From the NCBI RefSeq assembly GCF_963921235.1, contig NC_086097.1, positions 21,020,001 to 21,084,000 on the forward strand: a stretch of 64,000 nt of DNA. The letters are read 5' to 3'. A program made the translations under genes and the position numbers. Source of the stretch: Mobula hypostoma. Its lineage: Eukaryota. The notes beneath the pieces are model-generated. The model was not told where the DNA came from. It did no database searches and saw only the letters and a list, made by a program, of their open reading frames with translations. Shown here one piece after another: positions 1,798 through 64,000 of the stretch. Within the stretch, counting starts at the first letter, position 1, and each line of letters opens with the position of its first letter.

Positions 1798-2452
1798 AGG
1801 TGTGATGTGCAGAACTTGTTGCCAGCCAATACATTCAACCTGTCCTTGGACTCTGTGGAAGTCTCACAGAAAATTAGTGAAATACCAACTACAACAATGA
1901 ATTTGATAGATATTTTGGGAGAAACAGAATGTTAGTGTAGATAATTTTATGGAAATAATTCATTATAGGATAATATTACTAGTTTAAAAAAAATCTATTA
2001 GGGCAAAGTAGCACAAAATGATACTTCATTACTACAACGAATTACAAAATCAAATGACATTCAAAAACTGCTCACCAGATGTGTATACGGTTTTTCCAGA
2101 AACTATTTCAAAATATTCCACACCGCAGTAAAGATTTAGATCAAGTGGGCAGACACCATTTTTCCAGTGAGTCTTGACAAAACTTCAATTACATAGGCGG
2201 CTTATAAAATTACTCTAGATTAGTTCAACAGTCAGCCCATGTTTTCGATACAATTTTAGCAAGAGTTAACGTTATCCTTGGTGCAGTTACATTTAAATGG
2301 AATAGTTGCTAAAGAACTTCGAGATTAGAAAATTAAGTAATATCGCAGGAAATGGTCAACGTTCCCAAATGTCTTCACTTTGCTTTTCTACGTGAGACTT
2401 CCACAATGTCCAAGGACGTATTGGCCGGCAACAAGTTCCACACATCACACCT
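1798..2452. repeat. Imperfect ~80 bp inverted repeat pair (1798-1881 and 2374-2452) flanking an AT-rich core; possible MITE or inverted duplication in intron 1
   Basis: AGGTGTGATGTGCAGAACTTGTTGCCAGCCAATAC..GTCCTTGGACTCTGTGGAAGTCTCAC is the reverse complement of GTGAGACTTCCACAATGTCCAAGGACGTATTGGCCGGCAACAAGTTCCACACATCACACCT, apart from a few substitutions and an indel. Confidence 0.8.
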
Positions 2453-2516
2453 CACAAGCTTAACCATCCATAGCGCGTCCCTCAACACCTGGCCAGCCCC
2501 GGCGCCCCCGCCTTAC

Positions 2517-2651
2517 CTGCCCATTCTGAGCAAAGCCCAGCTTGACGAAACCGTTCTTCCAGGCGCTCGCTTTGCTCTCCGAGTGCGCTTTCTCCATGAA
2601 CCCGTTGACCGTGCTGTAAATGTCCCCGTTGGGCGCTAGCTTGCTCTCCAT
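2517..2651 (-). CDS. sptlc2: First coding exon of a host gene, most likely serine palmitoyltransferase long-chain base subunit SPTLC2 (SPTLC3 not excluded)
   Basis: ATG at 2651-2649, 45 codons MESKLAPNGDIYSTVNGFMEKAHSESKASAWKNGFVKLGFAQNGQ, then a strong phase-0 donor CAG|GTAAGG at 2517/2516. It lies just downstream of a CpG island. The NG-rich N-terminus, KNGFV motif and exon ending in GQ resemble vertebrate SPTLC2 exon 1 as I recall it. No further exon was recognised in the window. Confidence 0.55.
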
Positions 2652-2659
2652 ACTGCTCG

Positions 2660-3030
2660 CCTCCTCAGCTCTCCCCACCGGGTCCCCTGCTCGGCCACCC
2701 CTCGCCCAGCACCGTCTGCGGATCAGCTGGAACCCCTGCCCACTCGCCCTTCAGCCGCCGACTGAAGCGTGAGTCTGAGAGAGAGCGAGAAGAGACCCAG
2801 AACAGCTGGCGGGCTGAGGGGCGAACGAGAGGGGAGGGTAGACAAACACCGGAAGGTCGTCATGTCGCAACCCGCCGCCAATGGCAAGCCGCCGCGGCGT
2901 CCCACGTGCCTCTCCCGGTGACGTCGCGAAGGTGCGGCCCGGCATTCCGACGACTCCGCCCACTCGATGACGTCGTTGGCCGTGACCGCGAGTAACCTCA
3001 ACTCTAATATCTAATTCCGGAAGGATGCCT
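2660..3030 (-). promoter_or_regulatory. CpG-island promoter / 5' UTR of the minus-strand gene
   Basis: Sharp local rise in GC and CpG. ETS core CCGGAAG (~2849-2855 and ~3017-3023), CCAAT 2878-2882, E-box CACGTG 2903-2908, CRE-like TGACGTC 2919-2925 and 2968-2974, GC box CTCCGCCC 2954-2961. Confidence 0.75.
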
Positions 3031-3314
3031 ATTTCACCCACCTTTCGCTAGTTTTTGCTAAAAGATAAAAAATACCAAGTTTTCAGAGTGAGAGTCGTTG
3101 AACCACGTTTTCTTATTTTAGTTATACTCTCCATTGCATACAGGACATATTATTGTGGGAATTAAAACCTTTTAAATCCTTTACAACTTTTCTCTCTCAT
3201 TCCCTGCCTGTAGCTTTTGAATGTGACACTGTTTCTGTTAATTTTCTTACTAAAGTTATTGTCCGAGCTTCTGCCGTTTCTGACAATTCAATATTTCATA
3301 ATATTGAATGCCAT

Positions 3315-3585
3315 AGTACCATAGTGGTTAATGCTCACAGCGTCTAAGTTCGGAGTTCAATTCCAATGCAATTTGTGGGAGTTTCTGTACATCCTCCCTG
3401 TGGAACATGTGGGTTTCCTCCGGGTGCTCCAGTTTCCTCCCACAGTCCAAAGACATACTGGTTAGTAGGTTAATTGGTCATTGCAATTGTCCCGTGATTA
3501 GGGTAGGATTAAATTAGGGATTGCTAGGCTTTGCGGGTTGAAGGGCCAGAATGGCCCATTCTGGACTGTTTCTTAATAAATTAAT
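3315..3585 (+). mobile_element. HE1/V-SINE-like tRNA-derived SINE (related copies near 4255-4520 -, 11520-11705 -, 18825-19070 +, 35520-35805 -, 36800-37060 +, 42925-43195 -, 47275-47500 +)
   Basis: Degenerate A/B boxes followed by the V-SINE core GTGGGTTTCCTCCGGGTGCTCCAGTTTCCTCCCACAGTCCAAAGAC and a CR1-like 3' end; recurs through the window. Confidence 0.75.
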
Positions 3586-4657
3586 TAACAGGAAACCAAG
3601 TTTTCAAGTGGATCCGCAAAAAAAGTAGAGCTAATGAGAGCATTTTAAATGTTAAAGTATAATGTTATTGTAAAATATCTAAGAAATGGTGTTTAATCTC
3701 CTTTGCTTAAATATCTGCTGAATTTTGTTGTTCACTGACTCCCATTCTTTGACAAATTTTTCATAAACAGTAGCGTATTTTCATGTGTTTAAGGAACAAT
3801 GTGCTGTATCTCTAAATAAATAAATCAAATCAAATAAACTGTTTCCGTGCTGTCATTCTTATATGGTTAAATAAAATTGGCTATGTAACAGAAATAAGTG
3901 ATGCTGCAGATTGTAACATTGAAACAGCAGGCTGTTGTACTCCCTGTCATCTGTTGCAGGAGCAATATCTCTCCCTCACTAGTGAGACAGAGAGCCTGTC
4001 TGAGATGTTGAAGTGTTGAGACGGACTGTTATTTTTGATGGACTCTAGACCATGGTCTTTAGGGGGCTTTGCAGTTGCCTGCATGCTGGGTGGTGGGGAT
4101 TGACGCTTTTGCTGTGGCAAGTGGGGGGAGGGTTGATGCTTGTGTGTGCGAGGGGGAGCTCTACTGTTTTACTGAGTTTCATTCTTTTCTTCTGTTTTGT
4201 GGATGCCTGTGAGGAATATGTATTTCAGGTTGTAAACTATACGTTTGTTGTTTAGAGTCAACATGGAGTAGGCCCTTCTGGCCCTTCGAGCCACTCTGCC
4301 CAGCAATCCCCCAGTTTAATCCTAGCCTAATCACGGGACAATTTGCAACGACCAACTAACCGGCCAACAGCGTACGCCTTTTGGAACATGGGAGGAAACC
4401 GGAGCACCCGGAGGAATGCCGCACAGAATGTACAATCTCCTTACAGGCAGCGTCAGGAATTGAACCCATGTCGCTAGTACTGTAAAGCGTTGTGTTCGCC
4501 ACTATGCTACCATGCTACCCTATCTCTGGTATCAAATTGAACCACTGAAATGTAAGCAAAATATGCTGGAAAAACTTCACAGCTCAGGTAGATACTCATT
4601 AGTTGTCTGTGAGAAGACCTCTTCAGAATCACAATCGTGTTTATTATCACTAACATG

Positions 4658-5170
4658 CGCTCAGTAGCCATTTCATTTGGACACCATTAAAACCCAGTGT
4701 GGCCTTCTGCTGCTGGGGCTCATTCACTTCAAGATTGGACACGTTGTGCATTCAGAGATGTCCTTCTGCAACCACTGTCATAACACATGGTTATCTCAGT
4801 TACTGTAACCTTCCTGTCAACTTGAACCAGTATGGTCATTCTCCTCTGACCTCTCTCATTAACAAGACATTTTTACTCAGAAAACTGCCACTCACTGTTT
4901 CTGCACCATTCACGTAAACTCTAGAGACTGTTGCGCGTGAAATACCCAAAATCTGAGATACCCAAATCACCCTGTCTGGCACCAACAATTATTCTATGGT
5001 CAAAGTCGCTTGAATCATATTTCTTCCCCATTCTGGTGTTTGGTCTGAACAACAACTCAACCTCTTGACCACGTCTGCATGCTTTTATGCATTGAGTTGC
5101 TGCCACATGATTGGCTGATTCGATATTTACATTAATGAGCAGGTGTACCTACTGAAGTGTCCACTGAGAA
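4658..5170 (-). mobile_element. Internally deleted Tc1-type DNA transposon
   Basis: TIRs CGCTCAGTAGCCATTTCATTTGGACACC / GGTGTACCTACTGAAGTGTCCACTGAG, right end followed by TA. The internal frame MGKKYDSSDFDHRIIVGARQGDLGISD resembles the Tc1 transposase N-terminal HTH. Inserted into a LINE 3' tail. Confidence 0.75.
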
Positions 5171-5767
5171 TATGTCATGAAATTTGCTGCTTTACAGAAG
5201 CAGTACAGTGCAATAAATAAAATATATCATCAATTATAATAAGAAGAATATGTAAAGAATTCAATTAGCAGTGCAAAAAGCTAGTGAGGTAGAATTCATG
5301 GGTTCATCGTCCATACAGAAATGTGAAGGTGGAGTTGAAGAAGTTGTTCCTAAAATGTTGAGTGCGTGTCTTCAGGCTCCTGTACCTCCTCTCTGATGGC
5401 AGTAATGAGAAGAGGGCGTGTCCTGGGTAGTGGTCCTTTGGAGCATTGCCTGTTGAAGATGGCCTTGATACACAAACCAAAAGCCACGGATGAACCAGGG
5501 GATTCACAGACAGCTGAGGGCTGGATCTGTGGCATTCAAGACCAGTGATCCGGAACTATACAAGAAGTCCAAGTATAACCTAAGGAAGGTTATTTTAAGA
5601 GTGAAGAAACGATTCCTGTTGAAGTTAGAGACAGAACTGGATGCACGTCAGCTCTGGCAGAGTTTTCAGGACATTACTTCTTCTGAGGTGAAACCTATCG
5701 TCATGAATGGCTGTGGTGCTGCACTCCCAGCTGGACTCAATGACCCTTATGCATGCTTTGAAAGGGA

Positions 5768-6290: not shown

Positions 6291-7380
6291 GAAAGGGAGA
6301 ATAAAACTACACCTGTTCAAATCCTTGTATTACCTGGTGACCTTGTGACCTCTGTCTCAGAGGCCAACATCAGAACTTCATTCAAGAGGGTGAACCCTCA
6401 CAAGGCCTCAGGCCCTGTGATGGTGTACCTGGTGGGAGCTGAGAACCTGTGCCAACCAACAGGTGGGAGTGTTCGAGGACATCTTCAATCTCTCACTGCA
6501 GCATTTGGAGGTTCTTACCTGCTTCAGGATGGCAACAATCGTACCAGTGCCCAAGAAGAGCAGGGTGAGCTGCCTCAATGACTATCACCCAGTGGCACTC
6601 ACATCTACTGTGATGAAGAGCTTTGAGAGATTGGTCATGGTTAGAATTAACTCCTATCTAAGCAAGGGCCTGCACCCACTGCAATTTGCCTATCACCACA
6701 ACAGGTCGACAGTAGACGCAATCTCACTGGCTCTCCACTCAGCTTTGAAACACTTGAACAGTATAAATACCTATGTCAGGCTGCTGTTTATTGATTACAA
6801 CTCAGTGTTCAACATCATCATACCCTCAGTGTTAATCAACAAGCACCACAACCTGGGCCTCTGTACCTCCCTTGCATCTGGATCCCGAACTTCCTCACCG
6901 TGATGCCACAGTCAGTGCAGACTGGAAATACCATCTCCCCCTCATTGACAATCAACACTGGTGCAAGTCGATGATGCATCCCATTGCTCTACCCTCTCTC
7001 TAAACCCATGACTGTGTGGCTAGAGATGGCTTAAACACCATCTATAAATTTGCTGATGTCAAATTTGTTGGCAGTGAGATCGATCAGCTGGTTGAATGGT
7101 AGCACAACATCAACCTTATACTCCACATCAGTAAGACCAAGGATTTGATTATGGAGGTCAGGAAGGGGAGGTTGCGGGAACACGCATCAGTCCTCATCAA
7201 GTGATTAGCAATGGAACGGGAGAGCGGTTTCACACTCCTGGGTGTCAACATCTCTGAAGGTCTATCCTGGGCCCAACATATTGATGCTATTACGGAGAAG
7301 GCATGACAGTGGCTAAGTTTCATTAGGAGTTTGAAGAGTTTGAGTATGTCACCAAAGACACTCACAAATTTCTAACTGGT

Positions 7381-7966
7381 TGCACAGGACCTGGTATGGA
7401 GGGGCCACTGCACAGGACCTGGTATGGAGGGGCCACTGCACGGGACCTGGTATGGAGGGGCCACTGCACGGGACCTGGTATGGAGGGACCACTGCACAGG
7501 ACCTGGTGACCTGGTATGGAGGGGCCACTGCACGGGACCTGGTATGGAGGGGCCACTGCACAGGACCTGGTATGGAGGGGCCACTGCACGGGACCTGGTA
7601 TGGAGGGGCCACTGCACGGGACCTGGTATGGAGGGACCACTGCACAGGACCTGGTGACCTGGTATGGAGGGGCCACTGCACGGGACCTGGTATGGAGGGG
7701 CCACTGCACGGGACCTGGTATGGAGGGGCCACTGCACAGGACCTGGTATGGAGGGGCCACTGCATGGGATCTGGTATGGAGGGGCCACTGCACAGGCCCT
7801 GGTATGGAGGGGCCACTGCACGGGATCTGGTATGGAGGGACCGCTGTACGGGACCTGGTATGGAGGGGCCACTGCATGGGATCTGGTATGGAGGGGCCAC
7901 TGCATGGGATCTGGTATGGAGGGGCCACTGCATGGGATCTGGTATGGAGGGGCCACTGCACAGGAC
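7381..7966. repeat. 28-bp minisatellite, about 20 copies, unit TGCAC(A/G)GGACCTGGTATGGAGGGGCCAC
   Basis: Head-to-tail tandem copies; two identical variant blocks with an 8-bp GACCTGGT duplication lie 148 bp apart (7500 and 7648). Confidence 0.97.
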
Positions 7967-8330
7967 TGGAAAAAGCTGCAGGAAGTTGCAAACTCAGACA
8001 TCTCCAACGTGGGCACTGGCCACCGCAGCATCAAGGATGTCCTCGAGAGGTAATGCCTCAAAAAGGCGGCAGTCATCAAGGACGCCCATCACCCAGAACA
8101 TTCCCTCTTCTCATTGCTACCATCAAGAACGAGGTCTGAAGATACACATTCAGCATTCTAGGAACAGCTTCTTCTCTTCTGCCATCAGATTCAGGAATGA
8201 ACAATGAACACATATACGCTACCTCACTGTGATTTGCTCACTTTTTGCACGACTTATCTAATTTATTTGTGTATATATATATATATATATATATATAGTT
8301 CTCTCTCCGTCTATATATATATATATATAT

Positions 8331-10650
8331 ATGCCATACTAGATCTAGTACTAGGTAATGAACCGGGTCAGGTCACAGATCTCTCAGTGGGTGAGCATCT
8401 GGGGGACAGTGACCACCGCTCCCTGGCCTTTATTATTATCATGGAAAAGGATAGAATCAGAGAGGACAGGAAAATTTTTAATTGGGGAAAGGCAAATTAT
8501 GAGGCTATAAGGCTAGAACTTGCGGGTATGAATTGGGATGATGTTTTTGCAGGGAAATGTACTATGGACATGCGGTCGACGTTTAGAGATCTCTTGCGGG
8601 ATGTAAGGGATAAATTTGTCTCGGTGAGGAAGATAAAGAATGGTAGGGTGAAGGAACTATGGGTGATAAGTGAGGTGGAAAATCTAGTCAGGTGGAAGAA
8701 GGCAGCATACATGAGGTTTAGGAAGCAAGGATGAGATGGGTCTATTGAGGAATATAGGGAAGCAAGAAAGGAGCTTAAGAAGGGGCTGAGAAGAGCAAGA
8801 AGGAGGTATGAGAAGGCGTTGGCGAGTAGGGTAAAGGAAAACCCCAAGGCATTCTTCAATTATGTGAAGAACAAAAGGATGACAGGAGTGAAAGTAGGAC
8901 CGATTAGAGATAAAGGTGGGAAGATGTGCCTGGAGGCTGTGGAAGTGAGCGAGGTCCTCAATGAATACTTCTCTTGGGTATTCACCAATGAGAGGGAACT
9001 TGATGGTGAGGACAATATGAGTGAGGTTGATGTTCTGGAGCTTGTTGATATTAAGGGAGAAGAGGTGTTGGAGTTGTTAAAATACATTAGGATGGATAAG
9101 TCCCTGGGGCCTGACGGAATATACCCCAGGCTACTCCACGAGGCGAGGAAAGAGATTGCTGAGCCTCTGGCTAGGATCTTTATGTCCTCATTGTCCATGG
9201 GAATGGTACCGGAGGACTGGAGGGAGGCAAATGTCCCCTTGTTCAAAAAAGGTAGTAGGGATAGTCCGGGTAGTTATAGACCAGTGAGCCTTACGTCTGT
9301 GGTGGGAAAGCTGTTGGAAAAGATTCTTAGAGATAGGATCTCTGGGCACTTAGAGAATCATGGTCTGATCAGGGACAGTCAGCATGGATTTGTGAAAGGC
9401 AGATTGTGTCTAACAAGCCTGATAGAGTTCTTTGAGGAGGTGACCAGGCATATAGATGAGGGTAGTGCAGTGGATGTGATCTACATGGATTTTAGTAAGG
9501 CATTTGACAAGGTTCCACATGGTAGGCTTATTCAGAAAGTCAGAAAGCATGGGATCCAGGGAAGTTTGGCCAGGTGGATTCAGAATTGGCTTGCCTGCAG
9601 AAGGCAGAGGGTCATGGTGGAGGGAGTACATTCAGATTGGAGGGTTATGACTAGTGGTGTCCCACAAGGATCGGTTCTGGGACCTCTACTTTTCATGATT
9701 TTTATTAACGATCTGGATGTGGGGGTAGAAGGGTGGGTTGGCAAGTTTGCAGATGAGTCAAAGGTTGGTGGTGTTGTAGATAGTGCAGAGGATTGTCGAA
9801 GATTGCAGAAAGACTATGATGGGTTGCAAAAGTGGGCTGAAAAGTGGCAGATGGAGTTCAGCCCGGAGAAGTGTGAGGTGGTACATTTTGGAAGGACAAA
9901 CTCCAAGGCAGAGTACAAAGTAAATGACAGGATACTTGGTAGTGTGGAGGAGCAGAGGGATCTGGGGGTACATGTCTACAGATCCCTGAAAGTTGCTTCA
10001 CAGGTAGATAGGGTAGTTAAGGAAGCTTATGGGGTGTTAGCGTTCATAAATCGAGGGATAGAGTTTAAGAGTCGCGAGGTAATGATGCAGCTCTATAAAA
10101 CTCTGGTTAGGCCACACTTGGAGTATTGTGTCCAGTTCTGGTCACCTCACTATAGGAAGGTTGTGGAAGCATTGGAAATGGTACAGAGGAGATTTACCAG
10201 GATGCTGCCTGGTTTAGAGAGTATGGATTATGATCAGAGATTAAGGGAGCTAGGGCTTCACTCTTTGGAGAGAAGGATGATGAGAGGAGACATGATAGAG
10301 CTATACAAGATATTAGGAGGAATAGATAGAGTGGATAGCCAGCGCCTCTTCCCCAGGGCACCACTGCTCAATACAAGAGGACATGGCTTTAAGGTAAGGG
10401 GTAGGAAGTTCAAGGGGGATATTAGAGGAAGGTTTTTTACTCAGAGAGTGGTTGGTGCATGGAATGCACTGCCTGAGTCAGTGGCGGAGGCAGATACACT
10501 AGTGAAGTTTAAAAGACTACTAGGCAGGTATATGGAGGAATTTAAGGTGGGGGCTTATATGGGATGCAGGGTTTGAGGGTCAGCACAACAATATGGGCCG
10601 AAGGGCCTGTACCGTGCTGTACTATTCTATGTTCTACATGTTCTATGTTC
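8331..10650 (+). mobile_element. Young 5'-truncated CR1 LINE inserted in a (TA)n tract
   Basis: End of endonuclease (SDH motif), RT domain, CR1 C-terminus (TRGHGFK..WNALP) and (TTCTATG)n tail at ~10625-10650; (TA)n on both sides. Confidence 0.95.
8819..10576 (+). pseudogene. CR1 ORF2 reverse transcriptase remnant (585 aa open frame)
   Basis: [21 protein letters not shown] and [10 protein letters not shown] motifs. The catalytic FADD reads FADE, there is an in-frame stop upstream at ~8732, and the endonuclease is truncated. Confidence 0.9.
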
Positions 10651-10739
10651 TATATATATATATTTCTTATCGTAATTGATAGTTTTGTGTTGTGTATTGC
10701 AATGTACTGCTGCTACAAAACAACAAATATCATGGCATA

Positions 10740-10932
10740 GCAACACACACAAAACATTGGGGAAACTCAGCAGGCCATTCAACATCTGTGGAGAAGAATC
10801 TAGCTGACGCTTCGTCCTGAAACGTTGACTGTTTACTCTTCTCTATAGATGCTGCCTGGCCTGCTGAGTTCCTCCAGCATTTTGTGTGCGTTGCTTGGAT
10901 TTCGAGCATCTGTAGATTTCCTCTTGTTCATG
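10740..10932. mobile_element. Penelope-like inverted pseudo-LTR pair with 14-bp TSD
   Basis: Two family heads in opposite orientation joined at ~10812; AATATCATGGCATA at 10726-10739 and 10933-10946. Confidence 0.85.
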
Positions 10933-16970: not shown

Positions 16971-17631
16971 CATGTGGTAGAGTCTAGAAGAATGGGAAGG
17001 GACCTCACTGAAAGGTATAAAATTCATTTTGGTTGTTGGCAGCATAGATTGGATGAATTTTCACCTGGATCGGGTGTCAAGAATCGGGGGTTAAGATTCT
17101 AAATCAATGATCAGAATCGGGTTTATTATTGCTGACATATGTCATGAAATTTGTTCTGTTGTGGCAGCAGTACAGTGCAGGACATTAAAAATTACTATAA
17201 GTTACAGTAAGAAATATTTAAAAAATAAGTAATGCAAAAAGAGCAAAATGGTGAGGTAGTTTTCATGGGTTCGTGGACCGTTCAGAAATCTGATGGTGGA
17301 GGGGAAGAAGCTGTTCTGAAACTGTTTAGTGTGTGTCTCATGCTCCTGTACCTCGTCCCTGATGGTAGTAATGAGGAGAAGTGATGTGCTGGATGGTGAG
17401 GGCCTTAATGATGAACGCTGTCTTCTTGAGGCACCGCCTCGTAAAGGTGGACTTAATGTACCCGTGCTAGAGTTGGCTGAGCTTACAGCCCTCTGCGGTT
17501 TTTGCTGATCCTGCTCCATGCCCATGCTATTCAGGACAGAGGTGAGAAGAAATTTCTTCACCCTATGTATCTGCCCACTGTGGCCTTCCAGGCTTAGGGC
17601 AGGACGTTGGAACTGAGGTATAAGATTAGCT

Positions 17632-17883
17632 ACATACATCAAAGTTGCTGGTGAACACAGCAGGCCAAGCAGCATCTATAGGAAGAGGCGCAGTCGATGT
17701 TTCAGGCCGAGACCCTTCATCAGGACTAATCCCTTACTCACTCTTCCTTCAGTTAGTCCTGATGAAGGGTCTCGGCCTGAAACGTCGACTGCGCCTCTTC
17801 CTATAGATGCTGCTTGGCCAGCTGCGTTCACCAGCAACTTTGATGTATGTTGCTTGAATTTCCAGCATCTGCAGAATTCCTGT
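17632..17883. mobile_element. Young Penelope-like inverted pseudo-LTR insertion (98-bp arms, 23-nt spacer) with 13-bp TSD
   Basis: Arms 17632-17729 and 17753-17850 are reverse complements with 3 mismatches by eye; TATAAGATTAGCT at 17619-17631 and 17884-17896. Confidence 0.92.
17755..17790 (+). ncRNA. Minimal type I hammerhead ribozyme motif (Penelope type)
   Basis: AGTC-CTGATGA-AGG GTCTCGG CCT-GAAA-CG-TC-GACT. Stem I is AGTC/GACT, the core is CUGAUGA, stem II is AGG/CCT, then GAAA, palindromic ACGT in place of stem III, and a GUC cleavage triplet ending at 17786. Confidence 0.85.
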
Positions 17884-19069
17884 TATAAGATTAGCTGTGA
17901 CCTTACTGGTGCAAACATGAAGAAGGCACACCAGTGGCTATACTTTATTAGGAGTCTGAGGAGATTTGGTAGGTCACCAAAGACTCCAGCAAATTTCTAC
18001 AGATGTACTGGGGAGAGCATTCTGACTGGTTGCATCACCTCCTGCTATGGCGGTTCCAATGCGCAGGAACGCATGAAGCTGTAGACTCAGACACCTCCAT
18101 CTAGGGCACAAGCATCCCTGCTTCTGAGGGCATCTTCAAAAGGCAGTGCCTCTAGAATGGAGCATCCATCATTAAGTCCCCTCATCACCCGAGACATGCC
18201 CTCTCCTCATCACTACCATCAGGGAGGAGGTACAGGAGCCTGATGACCCACACTCAATGTCTAAGGAAAGCTTCTTCCCCTCTGCTATCAGAATTTCAGA
18301 GCACTATCTCGCTCATCCTCTTTTGTACTTTTTAAAATTGTAACTGATAGTAGTTTGATATGTCTTGCAATGCACTGCTGCCACAAAGGAACAAAATTCA
18401 TAACATATGTAAGCCTGGTTCTGATTCCCAAGTAGAGAATTCCAAAGGTTTACAGTGAAGTAGTTTCTCCATCTTTCAGTCCTGAGTGGCCAACCCCTTA
18501 AAGTCCCTCGTTGTTGACTCTCCAAGCTGAGGAAGCTCTCCATATCTCTTCAAACTGGACCCTTTACACCCATCTGAAAGAGCAGCAGGGCCACTATCTG
18601 CCATCTTCTCTCAAAAGCAGAGCCTCACTCTCCCCATGAGATTCAGCTGAGCTCACTTTGCAGGCTTGAACCCACATCCTTCTGATTCAGAGCCAGCTAA
18701 CCACGGTGAGACACACTCAGAGGGGCTAAATAAATATAACAAAACCTGCCCCCTTAGCCAGGTTTGGGTGTGGACAATAGATTTTTTTTCCCCTTCAGGA
18801 AGTTTAACAACCCTGGCCGATTAGGGGCGGCAAGGCAGTGAGGCCGTTGGCATAATGCTGTTACAGTGTCTGAGACCCGGGTTTAATTCTACTACTGTCT
18901 GTAAGGAGTTTGTACGCTCTCCCTGTGACCACATGGGCTTTCTCTGGGTGCTCCGGTTTCCTCCCACATTTCAAAGACGTATGGTTGGGTTACCAGGTTA
19001 ATTGGTCACATGGATGGATTTGGACACATCGGCTCATTGGCTAGAAGGGCCGGTTACCGTGTGGCATCA

Positions 19070-22582: not shown

Positions 22583-24995
22583 TCCTTGCGGGAAGGTTTG
22601 CTAGTGCTGCTCTGGGGGGTTTAAACTAGATTTGCAGGGGGAGGGGAACCAGAGTGTTAGAGCAGATAGTGAGGTGGAGAAGGATAAAGGTCATGCGAGA
22701 ACTACAAGTATAACTGCAAAGACTGCAAGTATATCTCTAACATATAAAGAGGCTTTGAGGAAAGAGAAGCAGAACAAACGGTGTAAAGACAGTAAGGTAG
22801 AAAGGCTAAAGTGCGTGTACTTCAATGCAAGAAGCATCAGGAACAAAGGTGATGAACTGAGAGCTTGGATACATACATGGAATTTGATGTAGTGGTCATT
22901 ACAGAGACTTGGCTGGCACCAGGGCAGGAATGGATTCTCAATATTCCTGGATTTCAGTGCTTTAAAAGGGTTAGAGAGGGGGGGAAAGAGGAGGAGGGTG
23001 GCATTACTGGTCAGGGATACTATTTCAGCCACAGAAAGGGTAGGTAATGTAGCAGGATCCTCTTTTGAGTCAATATGGGTGGAAGTCAAGAACAGGAAGG
23101 GAGCAGTTACTCTATTGGGAGTATTCTATAGGCCCCCTGCTAGCAGCAGAGATACCAAGGAGCAGATTGGGAGGCAGATTTTGGAAAGATGCAAAAATAA
23201 CAGGGTTGTGATCATGGGTGACTTTAACTTCCCTAATATTGACTGGCACCTGATTAGTTCCAATGGTTTAGACGGGGCAGAGTTTGTTAAGTGTGTCCAG
23301 GACGGATTCCTGTCACAGTATGTGGACAGGCCGACTAGGGGGAATGCCACACTAGATCTAGTATTCGGTAACGAACTGGGTCAGGTCACAGATCTCTCAG
23401 TGGGTGAGCATCTGGGGGACAGTGACCACCGCTCCCGGGCCTTTAACATTATCATGGAAAAGGATAGAATCAGAGAGGACAGGAAAATTTTTAATTGGGG
23501 AAGGGCAAATTATGAAGCTATAAGTCCAGAACTTGCGAGTGTGAATTGGGATGATGTTTTTGCAGGGAAATGTACTATGGACATGTGGTCGACGCTTAAG
23601 GATCTCTTGCAGGATGTTAGGGATAAATTTGTCCCGGTGAGGAAGATAAAGAATGGTAGGGTGAAGGAACCGTGGGTGACAAGTGAGGTGGAAAATCTAG
23701 TCAGGTGGAAGAAGGCAGCATACATGAGGTTTAGGAAGCAAGGATCAGATGGGTCTATTGAGGAATATAGGGTAGCAAGAAAAGAGCTTAAGAAGGGGCT
23801 GAGAAGAGCAAAAAGGGGGCATGAGAAGGCCTTGATGAGTAGGGTAAAGGAAAACCCCAAGGCATTCTTTAATTATGTGAAGAACAAAAGGATGACAGGA
23901 GTGAAGGTAGGACCGATTAGAGATAAAGGTGGGAAGATGTGCCTAGAGGCTGTGGAAGTGAGCAAGGTCCTCAATGAATACTTCTCTTGGGTACTCACCA
24001 GTGAGAGGGAACTTGATGATGGTGAGGACAATACGAGTGAGGCTGATGTTCTGGAGCATGTTGATATTAAGGGAGAGGAGGTGTTGGAGTTGTTAAAATA
24101 CATTAGGACGGATAAGTCCCCGGGGCCTGACGGAATATACCCCAGGCTGCTCCACGAGGTGAGGGAAGAGATTGCTGAGCCTCTGGCTAGGATCTTTATA
24201 TCCTCGTTGTCCACGGGAATGGTACCGGAGGACTGGCGGGAGGTGAATGTTGTCCCCTTGTTGAAAAAGGGTAGTGGGGATAGTTCGGGTAATTATAGAC
24301 CAGTGAGCCTTACATCTGTGGTGGGAAAGCTGTTGGAAAAGATTCTTGGAGATAGGATCTATGGGCATTTAGAGAATCATGGTCTGATCAGGGACAGTCA
24401 GCATGGCTTTGTGAAGGGCAGATCATGTCTAACAAGCCTGATAGAATTCTTTGAGGAGGTGACCAGGCATATAGGTGAGGGTAGTGCAGTGGATGTGATC
24501 TACATGGATTTTAGTAAAGCATTTGACAAGGTTCCACACAGTAGGCTTATTCAGAAAGTCAGAAGGCATGGGATCCAGGGAAGTTTGGCCAGGTGGATTC
24601 AGGATTGGCTTGCCTGCAGAAGGCAGAGGGTCATGGTGGAGGGAGTACATTCAGATTGGAGGGTTATGACTAGTGGTGTCCCACAAGGATCGGTTCTGGG
24701 ACCTCTACTTTTCGTGATTTTTATTAACAACCTGGATGAGGGGGTAGAAGGGTGGGTTGGCAAGTTTACAGATGACACAAAGGTTGGTGGTGTTGTGGAT
24801 AGTGTAGAGGATTGTTGAAAATTGCAGAGAGACATTGATAAGATGCAGAAATGGGCTGAGAAGTGGCAGATGGAGTTCAACCCAGAGAAGTGTGAGGTGA
24901 TACACCTTTGAAGGACAAACTCCAAGGCAGAGTAGAAAGTAAATGGCAGGATACTTAGAAGTGTGGAGGAGCAGAGGGATCTGGGGGTACATGTC
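22583..24995 (+). mobile_element. Young CR1 LINE of the same family as 8331-10650: end of ORF1, APE endonuclease and RT, 3'-truncated
   Basis: [29 protein letters not shown] and RT motifs in ORF 22998-24818; FTDD motif then a stop; breaks abruptly at 24995 against a Penelope element. Confidence 0.95.
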
Positions 24996-25908
24996 AACAC
25001 TCACAACACGCTGGAGGAACTCAGCAGGTCGGGCAGCATCCGTGGAAAAGATCGGTCGATGTTTCGGGCCGGAACTCCTCGTCAGGACTGTAGAGGGAAG
25101 GGGCAGAGGCCCTATAAAGAAGGTGAGGGGAGGGTGGGAAGGAGAAGGCTGGTAGGTTCCAGGTGAAAAACCAGTAATGGGAAAGATAATGGTGTGGGGG
25201 AGGGGAGGCAGGGAGGTGATAGGCAGGAAAGGTGAAGAAAGAATAGGGGAAAACACAATGGGTAGTAGAAGGAGGTGGAACCATGAGGGAGGTGATAGGC
25301 AGCTGGAGGAGGGGGCAGAGTGAAGTAGGGATAGGGGAAGGGAGGGGGAGGGAATTACCGGAAGTTGGAGAATTCTATGCTCATACCAAGGGGTTGGAGA
25401 CTACCTAGACGGTATATGAGGTGTTGCTCCTCCAACCTGAGTTTAGCCTCATTGTGGCAGTAAAGGAGGCCATGTATGGACATATCTGAATGGGAATGGG
25501 AAGCAGAGTTGAGGTGGGTGGCTACTGGGAGATCCTGTCTGTTTTGGCGGATGGAGTGGAGGTGCTCGACGAAGCGGTCCCCCAATCTGCGTCGGGTTTC
25601 ACCGATGTAGAGGAGGCCGCACCGGGAGCACCGGATGCAATAGATGACCCCAACAGACTCACAAGTGAAGTGTTGCCTCACCTGGAAGGACTGTTTGGGG
25701 CCCTGAATGGTGGCAAGAGAGGAGGTGTAGGGACAGGTGTAGCACTTGCGCTTACAGGGATAAGTGCCAGGTGGGAGATCTATGGGGAGGGACGTGTGGA
25801 CCAGGGAGTTGCAGGGGGACCGATCCCTGCGGAAAGCGGAGAGGGGTGGAAAGGGAAAGATGTGCTTAGTGGTGGGGTCCTGTTGAAGGTGGCGGAAGTT
25901 GCGGGAGG
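24996..25908 (-). mobile_element. Penelope-like element 3' part with GIY-YIG endonuclease coding region and hammerhead-bearing pseudo-LTR (25053-25090)
   Basis: Frame 25355-25908: GTYPCKRKCYTC..VIYCIRCSRCGLLYIGETRRRLGDRFVEH..RLEEQHLIYRLGSLQPLGMS; CAGTCCTGACGAGGAGTTCCGGCCCGAAACATCGAC on the minus strand. Confidence 0.92.
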
Positions 25909-35663: not shown

Positions 35664-36333
35664 AACCGTACATCTTTGGAATGTGGGAGGAAACCCATGT
35701 TGTCACGAGGGAATGTTCAAACCCTTTACAGACAGCGGTGGGGTTGAACTGGGATTGCTTGCACTGTAATATCGGTATGCGAACAGCTACGCGGCTGTAC
35801 CACGCTGAACTAATCTCCTGTTGTCAGCAGCGTATCCAGTGAAAACAATAAACAAACGAGATTAACGTGTTCCCACTCTCACAGTGGCCATAGTTTGGAG
35901 TGTTGAGTTCCAGTTTATGCCAGTATGGTTTTGTGTCTGCTTATGCCTACCTATTGAATATTGAAAGGCCTAGATAGAGTGGATGTGGAGGGGATGTTTT
36001 CTACAGTGGGAAAATCTAGGGCCAGAGGGCACAGCCTCAGAATGGAGGGTCGACCCTTTAGAATAGAGATGAGGAGGAATTTCTTTAGTGTGTGGGTGGT
36101 GAATCTGTGGAATTCATTGCCACAGATGGATCTGGAGGCCAAAGTATATTTAAAATGAAGGTATATAGGTGTTACAGGGAGAAGGCAGGAGAATGGGGCT
36201 GAGAGGTATAATTAATCAGCCATGATGGAATGGTGGAGCAGACTCAATAGCCTGAATGGCCTAACTCTACTCCTATGTCTTACGCTCTTGAGGGTGGAAA
36301 CACAAATATTGTCCAACATGCATCTTCTACTGG

Positions 36334-36384
36334 AACTCCCCCATGGACGGTTCCAAACCCGGCTGCAAAAGGAGGAGGGTTGGG
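36334..36384 (+). ncRNA. Twister ribozyme relic (3' cleavage-product form) at the 5' end of an RTE-derived element
   Basis: AA-CTCC-CCC-ATG-GACG-GTTCCAAACC-CGG-CTGCAAAA-GGAG-GAGGG-TTGGG follows the P1-type twister layout (P2 CTCC/GGAG, L4 resembling GUCCCAAGCC, GAGGG) with several substitutions. Confidence 0.65.
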
Positions 36385-38809: not shown

Positions 38810-39097
38810 GTGTGGGCATGTGGTCAAGTGGTTAAGGCATTGGACTAGCGACCTGAAGGTCGTGAGTTCGAACCCCAGCCAAGGCAGCATGTTGTGTCCT
38901 TGAGCAAGGCACTTAATCACACATTGCTCTACGACAACACTGGTGCCAAGCTGTGTGGGTCCTAATGTCCTTCCCTTGGACAACATCGGTGTCGTGGAGA
39001 GAGGAGACTTGCGGCATGGGCAACTGCTGGTCTTCCATACAATCTTGCCCAGGCCTGAAGACTTTCCAGGCGCAGATCCATGGTCTCACAAGAGTAA
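38810..39097 (+). mobile_element. tRNA-derived SINE, copy 1, 12-bp TSD
   Basis: A box TGGTCAAGTGG, B box AGTTCGAACCC, GTCCTTGAGCAAGGCACTTAA core; TGGATAAGTACA at 38798-38809 and 39098-39109. Confidence 0.9.
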
Positions 39098-40991: not shown

Positions 40992-41297
40992 TGTGGGCAC
41001 GTGGCCAAAGTGGTTAAGGCATTCGACTAGCGATCTGAAGGTCGCTAGTTCAAGCCCCAGCCGAGGCAGCGTGTTGTGTCCTTGAGCAAGGCACTTAATC
41101 ACACAGTATTCTGTGATGACACTGGTGCCAAGCTGTATGGGTCCTAATGCCCTTCCCTTGGACTACATCAGTGTCGTGGAGAGGGGAGACTTGCAGCATG
41201 GGCAACTGCCAGTCTTCCATACAACCTTGCCCAGGCCTGCGCCCTGGACAGTGAAGACTTTCCAGGCGCAGATCCATGGTCTCGCAAGACTAACAGA
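40992..41297 (+). mobile_element. tRNA-derived SINE, copy 2, 11-bp TSD
   Basis: Same family as 38810-39097; TGCTGCCACAA at 40981-40991 and 41298-41308. Confidence 0.9.
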
Positions 41298-41455
41298 TGC
41301 TGCCACAAAAAAGCAACAATAAACCTGATTCTGATATGTAGCCTGAGATTGGGAAGGGGGCAGGGAGAGGAAGATCATGGTTGGGAAATGGGAAGGGAGA
41401 GGAGAGGGAGTACGAAGCGCCAGAGAAACAGTCTGTAGTGATCAATAAACCAATT

Positions 41456-48466: not shown

Positions 48467-48780
48467 AGGGCATCCTTTAGTCTTGCAGGACCATGGATCT
48501 GCGCCTGGAAAGTCTTCACTCTCCAGGGCGCAGGCCTGGGCAAGGTTGTATGGAAGACCAGCAGTTGCCCATGCTGCAAGTCTCCCCTCTCCACAACACC
48601 AATGTTGTCCAAGGGAAGGACATTAGGACCCATACAGCTTGGCACCAGTGTCATCACAGAGCAATGTGTGGTTAAGTGCCTTGCTCAAGGACACAACACT
48701 CTGCTTCGGCTGGGGCTCAAACTCATGACCTTCAGATTGCGAGTCGAACGCCTTAACCACTTGGCTATGTGCCCACGAAA
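48467..48780 (-). mobile_element. tRNA-derived SINE, copy 3, 11-bp TSD
   Basis: Reverse complement of the 38810/40992 family; TGCCTTATAAA at 48456-48466 and 48781-48791. Confidence 0.9.
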
Positions 48781-56013: not shown

Positions 56014-57486
56014 TAGAAACATAGAAACATAGAAAATAGGTGCAGGAGTAGGCCATTCGGCCCTTCGAGCCTGCACCGCCATTTATTATGATCATGGCTG
56101 ATCATCCAACTCAGAACCCCGCCCCAGCCTTCCCTCCATACCCCTTGACCCCTGTAGCCACAAGGGCCATATCCAACTCCCTCTTAAACATAGCCAATGA
56201 ACTGGCCTCAACAGTTTCCTGTGGCAGAGAATTCCACAGATTCACCACTCTCTGTGTGAAGAAGTTTTTCCTAATCTCGGTCCTAAAAGGCTTCCCCTCT
56301 ATCCTCAAACTGTGACCCCTCGTTCTGGACTTCCCCAACATCGGGAACAATCTTCCTGCATCTAGCCTGTCCAATCCCTTTAGGATCTTATACGTTTCAA
56401 TCAGATCCCCCCTCAATCTTCTAAATTCCAACGAGTACAAGCCCAGTTCATCCAGTCTTTCTTCATATGAAAGACCTGCCATCCCAGGAATCAATCTGGT
56501 GAACCTTCTTTGTACTCCCTCTATGGCAAAGATGTCTTTCCTCAGATTAGGGGACCAAAACTGCACACAATACTCCAGGTGTGGTCTCACCAAGGCCTTG
56601 TACAACTGCAGTAGTACCTCCCTGCTCCTGTACTCAAATCCTCTCGCTATAAATGCCAGCATACCATTTGCCTTTTTCACCGCCTGCTGTATCTGTATGC
56701 CCACTTTCAATGACTGGTGTATAATGACACCCAGGTCTCGTTGCACCTCCCCTTTTCCTAATCGGCCACCATTCAGATAATAATCTGTTTTCCTATTTTT
56801 GCCACCAAAGTGGATAACTTCACATTTATCCACAATAAATTGCATCTGCCATGAGTTTGCCCACTCACCCAACCTATCCAAGTCACCCTGCATCCTCTTA
56901 GCATCCTCCTCACTGCTAACACTGCCACCCAGCTTCGTGTCATCCGCAAACTTGGAGATGCTGCATTTAATTCCCTCATCCACGTCATTAATATATATTG
57001 TAAACAACTGGGGTCCCAGCACTGAGCCTTGCGGTACCCCACTAGTCACCGCCTGCCATTCTGAAAAGGTCCCGTTTATTCCCACTCTTTGCTTCCTGTC
57101 TGCTAACCAATTCTCCACCCACACCAATACCTTACCCCCAATACCGTGTGCTTTAAGTTTGCACACTAATCTCCTGTGTGGGACCTTGTCAAAAGCCTTT
57201 TGAAAATCCAAATATACCACATCCACTGGTTCTCCCCTATCCACTCTACTAGTTACATCCTCAAAAAATTCTATGAGATTCGTCAGACATGATTTTCCTT
57301 TCACAAATCCATGCTGACTTTGTCCGATCATTTCGCCGCTTTCCAAATGTGCTGTTATCACATCCTTGATAACTGACTCCAGCAGTTTCCCCACCACCGA
57401 CGTTAGGCTAACCAGTCTATAATTCCTCTTTTAAAGGAATCTCCCTCCTTTTTTAAAAAGTGGGGTTACATTAGCCACCCTCCAAT
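56014..57486 (-). mobile_element. Young 5'-truncated CR1 LINE (second family) with uninterrupted RT frame 56111-57397
   Basis: 428 aa with [26 protein letters not shown] and CR1 C-terminus; (TTTCTATG)n tail; CAGAAACA direct repeat at 56006-56013 and 57487-57494. Confidence 0.95.
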
Positions 57487-61754: not shown

Positions 61755-64000
61755 TAAAAGTGAGGTAGTGTTCCTTGGTTCAATATCCATTCAGAAATCA
61801 GCTGGCAGAGGGGAAGAAGCTGTTCTAGAATCACTGAGCGTGTGGCTTCAGGCTTCTGTACCTCTTTGCTGGTGGCAACAATGAGAAGAGGGCATGTCCT
61901 GGGTGGTGGCGGTCCTTAATGATGGACCCTGTCTTTCTGAGACTTCGCTCCTTGAAGATGTCTTGGGTACTACGGAGGCTAGTACCCGAGATGGAGCAGA
62001 TTAATTTTACAACTTTCAATTCTGTGCAGTAGACCCCCCCCCCCCATATCAGATGGTGATGCAGTCAGTCAGAATGCTCTCTATGGTACATCTGTAGAAG
62101 TTTTCGAGTGTTTTTAGGTGACAAACCAAATCTCCTCAAAATCCTAATAAAAAATAGCCACTGTCTTGTCTTCTTTATAGCTGTATTGATATGTTGGGAC
62201 CAGGTTTGATCCCCAGAGATCTTGACACCCAGGAACTTGAAATTGCTCAATCCCTCCACTTCTGATCCCTCAATGAGGACTGGTGTGTGTTCCCTCATCT
62301 TACCCTTTCTGAAGCCCACAATCAGCTCTTTGGTCTGACTGACGTTGAGTGTTAGGTTGCTGCTGCAACACCATTCAGCTACCAATCATATCTCACTCCT
62401 GTACACCCTCTCGTCTCCATCTGAGACTCTGCCAACAATGATTATATCTTCAGCAAATTTATAGATGGCATTTGAACTATGCCTAGCCACACAGTCATGG
62501 GTATAGAGAAAGCAAAGCTGTAGGCTAAGCACATATCCCTGAGGTGCGCCAGCGTTGATCGTCAGCGAGGGGGAGTTATTATCACCAATCCGCACAGATT
62601 GTCACAGCAACACATACAAAATGCTGGAGGAACTCAGCAGGCCAGGCAGCATCTCTGGGAAAAAGCACAGTCGACGTTTCGGGCTGAAACCCTTCAGCAG
62701 GACTGGAGAATAAAAGCTGAGGAGTAGATTTGAAAGGTGGGGGGTGGGGGGAGAGAGAGAAACAGCAGGCGATAGGTGAAATGGACGGGGAGGGATGAAG
62801 CTGGAAAGTTGTTTGGTGAAAGAGACAGAAAGACAGAAGGCCATGGAAGAAAGAGAAAAGGGGGAGGAGCACCAGAGGGAGGCAATGGGCTGGCAAGGAG
62901 ATAACATGAGAGAGACAAGGGGATGGGAAATGGTGAAGGGGGCGGGGTGCGGTCATTACCAGAAGTTTGAGAAATCAATGTTCAGGCCATCAGGTTGGAG
63001 GCTACCAAAATGGAATACAAGGTGTTGTGCCGAAGGGTTTCTCCCCGAAATGTCAACTGTGCTTCTTTCCAGAGATGCTGCCTGGCCTGCTGAGTTCCTC
63101 CAGCATTTTGTGTGCGTTGCTCAGATTTCCAGCATCTGCAGATTTTCTCTTGTCCGCACAGATTGTGATCTTCCTGTTAGGAAGTCAAGAATCCAATTGT
63201 AGAGGGAGGCACAGAGGTCCAGGTTCTGTAGCTTATCGATCAGGATTGTAGGAATGATGGCGTTGAATGCTGAGCTATAGGCAATGAACAGCATCCTGGC
63301 ATAGGTGGTTGTATTGTCCGGGTGGTCTAAGGCCGTGTGAAGAGCCATTGAGATTGCACCTGCTGTAGACCTATTGTGGTGATAGGCAAATTGCAATGGG
63401 TCCAGGTCCTTGCTGTGGTAGAAGTTGATTCTGGCCGTGACCGACCTCTCAAACGTCTTCATCACCATAGATGTGAGTGCTAATGGACAATAGTCATTAA
63501 GGCAGCTCACACTACTCTTCTTAGGCTCTGGTATAATTGTTTCCCTTTTGAAGCAGGTGGGAACTTCCGACCTGAGAAGTTGAAAATGTTGGTTGGCAGA
63601 GTTTTTCAGAGCTTTACCAGGTACTCCGTTGGGACCTGCCGTCTTACAAGGGTTCACCCACCTGAAAGACAACCTAACATTGGCCTCCGAGACAGAGATC
63701 ACAGTGTCACTGGGTGCAGCAGGGATCTTCACAGCTGTAGTTATAGTCTCCCTTTTAAAGTAGCCTTAAAAGGTGTTGAGTTCATCTGGTAGTGAAGCAT
63801 CGCTGCCGTTCATGCTATTGGGCTTCACTTTGTGGGAAGTAATGACCTGCAAACCCTGCCAGAGTTGTCATGCATCCGATGTCACCTCCAACCTCACTCA
63901 GAATTGTTTCTTCACTCTAGAGGTTGCCCTCCACAAGTGATACCTGGTGTTCTTGTACAGGCCTGGGTCGTCAGATGTAAATGCTAACAGATCTGGCCCT
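61755..64000 (-). mobile_element. Decayed Rex1/Babar-like LINE running off the window end, interrupted by a Penelope insertion
   Basis: ORFs 63121-63732, 62386-62595 and 62065-62385 with LNDYCPLALTS..LDPLQFAY, GAPQG..KFAED, FKFLGV. Confidence 0.88.
62603..63152. mobile_element. Penelope-like insertion with inverted ends, hammerhead motif (62668-62705 -) and 14-bp TSD
   Basis: TCCGCACAGATTGT at 62589-62602 and 63153-63166; CAGTCCTGCTGAAGGGTTTCAGCCCGAAACGTCGACTG on the minus strand. Confidence 0.9.

Follow-up and report, generated by a model that had tools for sequence, protein, structure and literature searches.

A minimal type I hammerhead motif in a head-to-head Penelope-like element stub of Mobula hypostoma, likely inactive in place

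Results

A head-to-head insertion at 17619-17896

The window, a 64,000-nucleotide stretch of the Mobula hypostoma genome, carries at 17619-17896 a short insertion built from two copies of the end of a Penelope-like element (PLE). A 13-bp target-site duplication (TSD) encloses it, the left copy (17619..17631, + strand) matching 17884-17896 exactly and the right copy (17884..17896, +) sharing its first T with the element end. The inverted arm (17632..17729, - strand) is a 5'-truncated pseudo-LTR (pLTR) end without a tail, 92-93% identical to the pLTRs of an intact element at locus L043. The sense arm (17728..17884, +; 157 bp, ungapped) is also a 5'-truncated pLTR end, has a tail of about 30 bp, and is 96.2% and 94.9% identical to the two L043 pLTRs. 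Both alignments claim 17728..17729, a 2-bp microhomology that forms the head-to-head junction overlap. The inverted repeat covers 17628-17729 and is 96% complementary to the sense arm. Over 98 nt the arms differ at three positions, two of them CpG-type; one CpG-type change, at 17698, turns ACGU into ACAU and breaks the palindrome of the inverted arm. Five differences from L043, including a U at N7, are shared by both arms.

The sense arm opens with a pyrimidine-rich pLTR stretch (17730..17752, +), unpaired in the predicted fold, where it is the loop of a fold-back hairpin. Next come the hammerhead and a block (17805..17855, +) whose sequence is conserved between subfamilies and which is predicted to form a stem-loop; column conservation, folding and the histogram of 3' ends delimit it, and its far end is close to the family's proximal 3' terminus, at +95 to +105 counted from the A of AGTC. 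The remaining stretch (17856..17884, +) is the optional PLE tail of about 30 bp, found in the sense arm only and defined by the two 3' ends of young copies. No other part of the element was found adjoining the stub, which has no ORF. Between unrelated ends, TSD-like matches of at least 10 bp arose by chance in 6 of 2000 trials. The TSD is reported without empty-site confirmation, since none of 30 local BLAST matches of the joined flanks spans the junction. Two older dispersed-repeat relics, about 70% like other copies, flank the stub at 17200-17450 and 17900-18300, and the homology of the right-hand relic begins at the TSD.

Elsewhere in the window are about 20 further relics of the PLE end and LINE frames with RVT_1 at 8735-10576 (+), 22893-24818 (+) and 56111-57430 (-), the second of which also has an APE-type endonuclease and is about 94% like the first. 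A tRNA-headed repeat, probably a SINE, occurs in three copies about 90% alike (48470-48776, -; 38812-39057; 41008-41300). The window also holds a minisatellite with a 28-nt period at 7353-8020 (about 24 units by span) and a weak Rfam twister-P1 match at 36329-36383 (+; 26 bits, E=0.29, far below gathering).

The hammerhead motif

An earlier note on this DNA had described a minimal hammerhead at 17755..17790 with a GUC site ending at 17786, and all its parts read directly from the window sequence at the coordinates given there. On the + strand these are the 5' strand of stem I, AGTC (17755-17758); the core CTGATGA (C3-A9; 17759-17765); AGG and CCT, taken in that note as the 5' and 3' strands of stem II (17766-17768 and 17776-17778); GAA (G12-A14; 17779-17781); the palindromic ACGT (ACGU; 17782-17785), whose first A is A15.1 and was also counted in the GAAA of the note; C17 (17786), with the predicted cut 3' of it; and the 3' strand of stem I, GACT (17787-17790). 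With a possible fifth stem I pair, U17754-G17791, stem I is formed by 17754-17758/17787-17791 and the minimal type I hammerhead covers 17754..17791 (+), as delimited by sequence, descriptor, folds, family alignment and the consensus in Fig. S3 of PMC4209133. The catalytic core (C3-A9, G12-A14, A15.1, U16.1 and H17) is complete, in agreement with the claim that every core nucleotide is kept, and the palindrome and both stems are intact as well.

A hammerhead descriptor requiring a stem I of at least 3 bp and a stem II of at least 2 bp matched the window three times, at the 17755 motif, at its inverted twin (17729, minus) and at 25091 (minus), and matched none of 30 first-order Markov control sequences. 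An Rfam scan of the window gave no hammerhead family at E<=1, its other matches being weak or repeat-driven. The twin belongs to the inverted arm, whose start is the 5' edge of stem I and which bears this second hammerhead; the inverted copy, 23 nt upstream of the motif, was absent from the earlier description.

For stem II the letters stand and the pairing register does not hold for the family. The extra nucleotide between A9 and 10.1 is present as a bulged A (17766, +), followed by G17767-U17778 as the first pair of a stem (17767-17770/17775-17778, +) of G-U, G-C, G-C and U-G around a CUCG loop. This first pair holds in 106 of 118 full-span family copies, against 59 of 119 family copies for the first pair of the AGG/CCT register, and the window copy folds to -7.0 kcal/mol in the shifted register versus -5.6 in the other. 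We therefore rejected AGG/CCT pairing as the family structure in favor of a bulged A with GGGU/GCCU around CUCG, while it is still possible for the window copy. Stem II of the metazoan consensus in PMC4209133 opens with G-C at 10.1-11.1, a strict G-C that the window copy lacks; across the family this pair is G-C in 52 and G-U in 47 of 118 copies.

Judged from its sequence, the window motif is a real minimal type I hammerhead of a Penelope-like pLTR, beyond chance. Its proposed Penelope pLTR origin, with ACGU replacing stem III, is supported by 96% identity of the sense arm to the upstream pLTR of L043 and by its fit to the metazoan consensus as given in PMC4209133.

The parent element

Locus L043 encodes an intact PLE frame of 1043 aa (2315-5446, -) with a long Pro/Ser-rich segment before the reverse transcriptase (RT). 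Hammerhead sequence flanks the frame on both sides, the copies lying 3512 bp apart, and the first in-frame ATG is about 139 nt 3' of the cut site. Pfam matches to RVT_1 (E=2e-5) and GIY-YIG (E=0.002) were both below the curated cut-offs, the Atlas assigned the frame at 0.98 to RT/GIY-YIG/HTH_animal clusters, and a PDB sequence search with the frame returned no match. The parent family has a single ORF with RT (DKG motif) and, at the C-terminus, an endonuclease (EN) of GIY-YIG type, preceded by a linker, C-x4-C-x2-C, that fits CX2-5CxxC. A cysteine linker between RT and EN marks the Neptune and Nematis clades (described in PMC8557442), and by this motif alone the parent family would be of Neptune or Nematis type. 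The L043 family was probably active recently.

All five other loci examined have the motif twice, in the same orientation and about 3.5 kb apart, with broken frames. Copies L004 and L016 continue upstream into GIY-YIG coding sequence (Pfam found no family in their C-terminal fragments), and some copies, such as L007, continue downstream into the ORF start. Internally deleted units of pLTR, ORF start and pLTR occur at L007/L031 (G000:C1:8236528-8237000), L038, L040 and L042, with two same-sense hammerheads about 420 bp apart at L007/L031. Three ORF-start copies with a 310-bp period at G000:C2:157816592-157817364 may be a retrozyme-like array able to dimerise in cis.

Both 17730-17752 in the window and L043 5540-5640 are branch-point-like and pyrimidine-rich with CAG directly before stem I, making a candidate 3' splice site. 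This is similar to the D. virilis Penelope intron, which ends at helix I according to the account in PMC4209133. No genomic copy spliced at this CAG was noticed among loci L001-L030. Contigs from four sequencing runs of unconfirmed type cover the ribozyme-tail region of L043 (5000-6000) deeply, though contigs cannot reveal ends, strand or cleavage, and among the matches listed for L043:5000-6000 there is neither a sense-strand splice joint nor a pile-up of molecule ends.

Copy number, decay and covariation

The core pattern CTGANGA-N13-GAAACGTH has 100,750 matches genome-wide (control 103). Searched exactly, with either C or T accepted at position 11.1, the 34-mer is present 3,622 times across the 3.48 Gb of the genome (control 0). 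Three unselected regions totaling 864 kb contain 25 core matches, equal to the genome-wide density. A profile search of the same 864 kb returned 237 full or partial relatives, which extrapolates to roughly 1 million relics genome-wide. Only 17 of 122 sampled full-span copies keep core, palindrome and stems together; extrapolation from these 17 in 864 kb gives roughly 68,000 genome-wide. Decay of the copies is neutral and CpG-driven, with core letters unlike the majority at 7.6% for non-CpG and 28% for CpG-exposed positions. The core of the window copy is intact because the copy is young, being 96% identical to the intact element with only three arm differences.

The main family has one-sided changes only, at the outer stem I pair (C-G in 43 and U-G in 34 of 108 copies) and at 10.1-11.1, and we saw no clear case of a compensated, two-sided change there. 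U-A at the inner stem I position of the main 13-nt class was present in only 215 copies, mostly ordinary family sequences; these fit independent double decay and were rejected as covariation. In the class with a 14-nt stem II, T stands at the pairing position in 8 of the 9 rows that end in TTAAC and in 9 of the 91 others (P=1e-6). These figures were counted by hand over the first 100 rows of 183, and the copies are related and not independent events; the tally suggests a single C-G to U-A replacement in an older family. The earlier note held that lack of stem I/II covariation across genomic copies would count against the ribozyme. That test is not valid, since the copies descend from a few masters and decay neutrally. 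The hammerhead block is constant across subfamilies while the following 12 nt (+37 to +49) vary, suggesting selection in the source elements.

Insertion geometry of head-to-head pairs

We numbered positions from the A of AGTC (+). Young copies have 3' ends at two places about 30 bp apart, approximately +95 to +105 and approximately +133, so an arm can be scored as tailed or tail-less. We collected 45 head-to-head pairs, 21 from the unselected regions and 24 from loci chosen for intact motifs or an ORF start. Five could not be classified and were left out of the tail count. One tailed and one tail-less arm were found in 35 of the 40 classifiable pairs, against 47% expected from solo copies (P=9e-8). 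The proximal class had first been closed at +108; raising that limit to +110 once the 3' ends had been plotted moved two pairs from unclassified to discordant. In the unselected regions 14 of 17 pairs were discordant in tail status. Among pairs with a TSD of 10-16 bp (mode 14), the window stub included, exactly one arm is tailed in 23 of 23. The exceptions among the 45, four tail/tail pairs and one proximal/proximal pair, all lack a TSD of at least 10 bp. Further head-to-head pairs of the PLE end occupy 10738-10928 and 62602-63153 of the window; in both the TSD is 14 bp and a single arm is tailed.

The two arms of one insertion resemble each other more than arms of different insertions do (2.9% versus 5.6% non-CpG differences, P=2e-5). 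They also match at subfamily sites, as in 17 of 20 cases where 6.9 were expected. This likeness could come from gene conversion instead of a common source. Either arm may be the longer one (16 versus 11 pairs, 6 equal). At the junctions of the TSD pairs, 19 of 23 have overlaps of at most 4 bp or short gaps and 4 of 23 have overlaps of 12-22 bp.

Our inference is that both arms were primed on a single source RNA, each nick using its own RT start site. A wider reading, quite possible but short of even odds, is that a protein dimer holds one RNA at two RT start sites about 30 nt apart, one site per nick, that the integrated RNA is uncut at the hammerhead, and that the ribozyme serves as a brake or in processing other transcripts and has no part in integration. 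One start site per nick would give exactly one tailed arm per inverted insertion. For the window stub, the protein of the element would have made two staggered nicks 13 bp apart, each priming cDNA on one shared source RNA, one at the tail-end start site and the other at the proximal one. Each cDNA would have run through the ribozyme, uncut or re-ligated, and halted a short way 5' of it, and the two would have been joined at the 2-bp microhomology. For the anole, PMC11167929 reports a PLE protein that nicks both strands and extends them, is a predicted dimer, and starts RT at two sites that match the tail. In the same report start site use was equal on both strands in vitro, counting against strict use of one site per end. 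If true, this reading would supply an insertion step yet to be demonstrated experimentally for Penelope, and one that can be tested statistically with the relics of this genome.

The one-sided tail with an inverted pLTR has been published before, with self-priming offered as the cause (PMC3846280, PMC8557442). A single cDNA or antisense template would fold at a short palindrome and be copied back, as proposed for junction palindromes of Adineta PLEs in PMC3846280. Such snap-back accounts for the source variants shared by the arms and for the four TSD pairs with 12-22 bp overlaps. The 19 junctions with smaller overlaps or gaps argue against it, as does the fact that either arm may be longer, in some pairs by about 1 kb (-1267/-2291, -126/-1077), and the end of the second arm is no random one but coincides with a fixed terminus of the family. 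We consider self-priming unlikely overall, though a real contender.

The cut site and the integrated templates

Among 133 copies, 122 extend 5' of +30 and four end at +30 to +39. None of 90 pair arms starts at the cut site (+30 to +34), versus 37 at -10 to +19, a count inflated by motif-based choice of loci and by older families with unaligned upstream pLTR. Neither the 133 copies nor the 90 arms show 5' ends piling up at the cut site. As copies extend past the cut site and no arm starts there, the integrated templates were uncut or re-ligated. The arms of the window stub stop at -2 and -27; a single RNA giving rise to both would have had to extend past -2.

Re-ligation is the basis of a model in PMC4209133, in which cleavage and re-ligation would yield a circular RNA template and the genomic cut sites are re-ligated ones. 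Partial tandems (L043, L007/L031) fit this model, as does the hammerhead block that stays unchanged across subfamilies next to 12 variable nt, implying selection in source elements. DNA, however, cannot tell re-ligated from uncut templates, and for the anole element PMC11167929 describes a hammerhead that insertion in vitro can do without and whose cut site lacked RNA-seq ends. A circular template is, in our judgment, improbable, a little more so than self-priming.

Two hammerheads would come together in a live element, supplied either by both pLTRs of a single transcript or by a pair of RNAs on a protein dimer. Their paired ACGU palindromes may form a shared stem III, allowing a slow cut after GUC that the protein of the element probably assists. 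Cutting would probably be unnecessary for insertion; the anole hammerhead is likewise reported as protein-assisted and dispensable for insertion in vitro (PMC11167929).

Activity of the window copy

The stub is predicted to fold into a hairpin of about 100 bp (-213 kcal/mol, z=-22.8). Stem I has a predicted pair probability of about 1e-46 when the whole stub is folded and of about 4e-5 when the sense arm is folded by itself, in predictions that leave out tertiary contacts and protein help. We found no same-sense partner for a dimer in or near the stub. A nested dimer hammerhead can be drawn via ACGU, at -11.5 kcal/mol versus -26.7 for an alternative duplex, which agrees with the weak activity reported for such motifs in PMC4209133, where minimal hammerheads are inactive as monomers and weak as dimers. 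As pairing with the antisense arm is predicted to take up the whole ribozyme, the window copy is likely inactive in place; a transcript from either strand would meet the antisense arm before the ribozyme, which leads to the same conclusion.

The earlier note thought the copy possibly catalytically competent, and we could not sustain this: the antisense arm is predicted to abolish the fold, a same-sense partner is missing and the dimer fold is outscored. A competent copy would dimerise with a second transcript, cleave in that form, and possibly influence host RNA that reads through it. Its core nucleotides, palindrome and both stems are all intact, as in only 17 of 122 full-span copies sampled, and G10.1-U11.1 is known from several minimal hammerheads published in PMC4209133. 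Against this, on the + strand the antisense arm precedes the ribozyme and is predicted to pair with it fully, stem I remains improbable even without that arm, the stub offers no partner of the same sense, and youth explains the intactness. We regard competence in place as very unlikely.

Discussion

We conclude with good confidence that the motif is a minimal type I hammerhead of a PLE pLTR, located in a head-to-head stub with a TSD and likely inactive in place. That the stub is an independent non-autonomous element, a SINE or retrozyme amplifying alone, is the least probable reading and can nearly be dismissed: the very many short copies (237 profile matches in 864 kb) and the internally deleted tandem at L007/L031 speak for it, but 5' ends and junctions vary from copy to copy in a continuous range up to full length, the stub has no head-to-tail tandem array, and its arms are 93-96% identical to an intact autonomous element.

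The ribozyme motif itself is established biology of a known kind, PLE minimal hammerheads having been in the literature since 2014 (PMC4209133), and the window copy is likely a dead stub. Our literature search returned no paper on shark or ray PLE hammerheads, on the L043 family or on dual priming by PLEs, although Lunse et al. (RNA Biol 14:1499) may list the family. The 56 aligned examples consulted in the supplement of PMC4209133 include no shark or ray. A preprint on tandem retrozymes (bioRxiv 10.64898/2026.07.22.740005) includes one chondrichthyan.

Like the metazoan PLE hammerheads described in PMC4209133, those of Mobula have CUGANGA with one extra nucleotide, a stem II opening with G, a GAAA-CG-U-H palindrome and a short stem I, are present in both pLTRs, and occur mostly as dispersed single copies with close opposite-strand pairs. 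Unlike the metazoan consensus, stem II is short here (4 bp, with two G-U pairs in the window copy). Scale is the other difference: the 100,750 core-intact motifs, about 100,000, are some ten times the largest count we noted in that 2014 survey (about 9,000 in Xenopus tropicalis), with descriptors that differ between the two.

Poseidon_Ac (PAc) of the green anole (Frangieh et al. 2024, PMC11167929) shares with the Mobula family a hammerhead at the pLTR-ORF junction, two 3' termini defining the tail, and AT-rich target sites. Unlike PAc, the family has a cysteine linker of the Neptune/Nematis type between RT and EN, and the ORF of PAc starts inside stem II, whereas the ATG of L043 lies well 3' of the cut site.

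Non-LTR retrozymes, as presented in the preprint, are similarly non-coding, with a type I hammerhead and kinship to PLE pLTRs. They consist of at least two head-to-tail units, making dimers possible in cis, while the window stub is head to head, so any transcript of it holds one ribozyme and its antisense.

The family has the traits of EN+ PLEs: partial-tandem pLTRs, an inverted 5'-truncated copy, a one-sided tail and a TSD. The stub is accordingly similar to the inverted-pLTR insertions in PMC3846280 and PMC8557442, which combine a head-to-head 5'-truncated copy, a tail on one arm (30-40 bp there) and a short TSD. Unlike those insertions, the whole window insertion is under 0.3 kb and without an ORF, and TSDs here are longer than the 8-10 bp given for Adineta in PMC3846280. 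What is added here to the inverted-pLTR insertions of those two papers is a count of the one-tail rule, which held in every TSD pair. The geometry of the stub connects what PMC11167929 reports from in vitro work, two RT start sites and double-strand priming, with the tail and inverted pLTR that had lacked an explanation in PLEs, and the intact parent frame at L043 makes this link testable.
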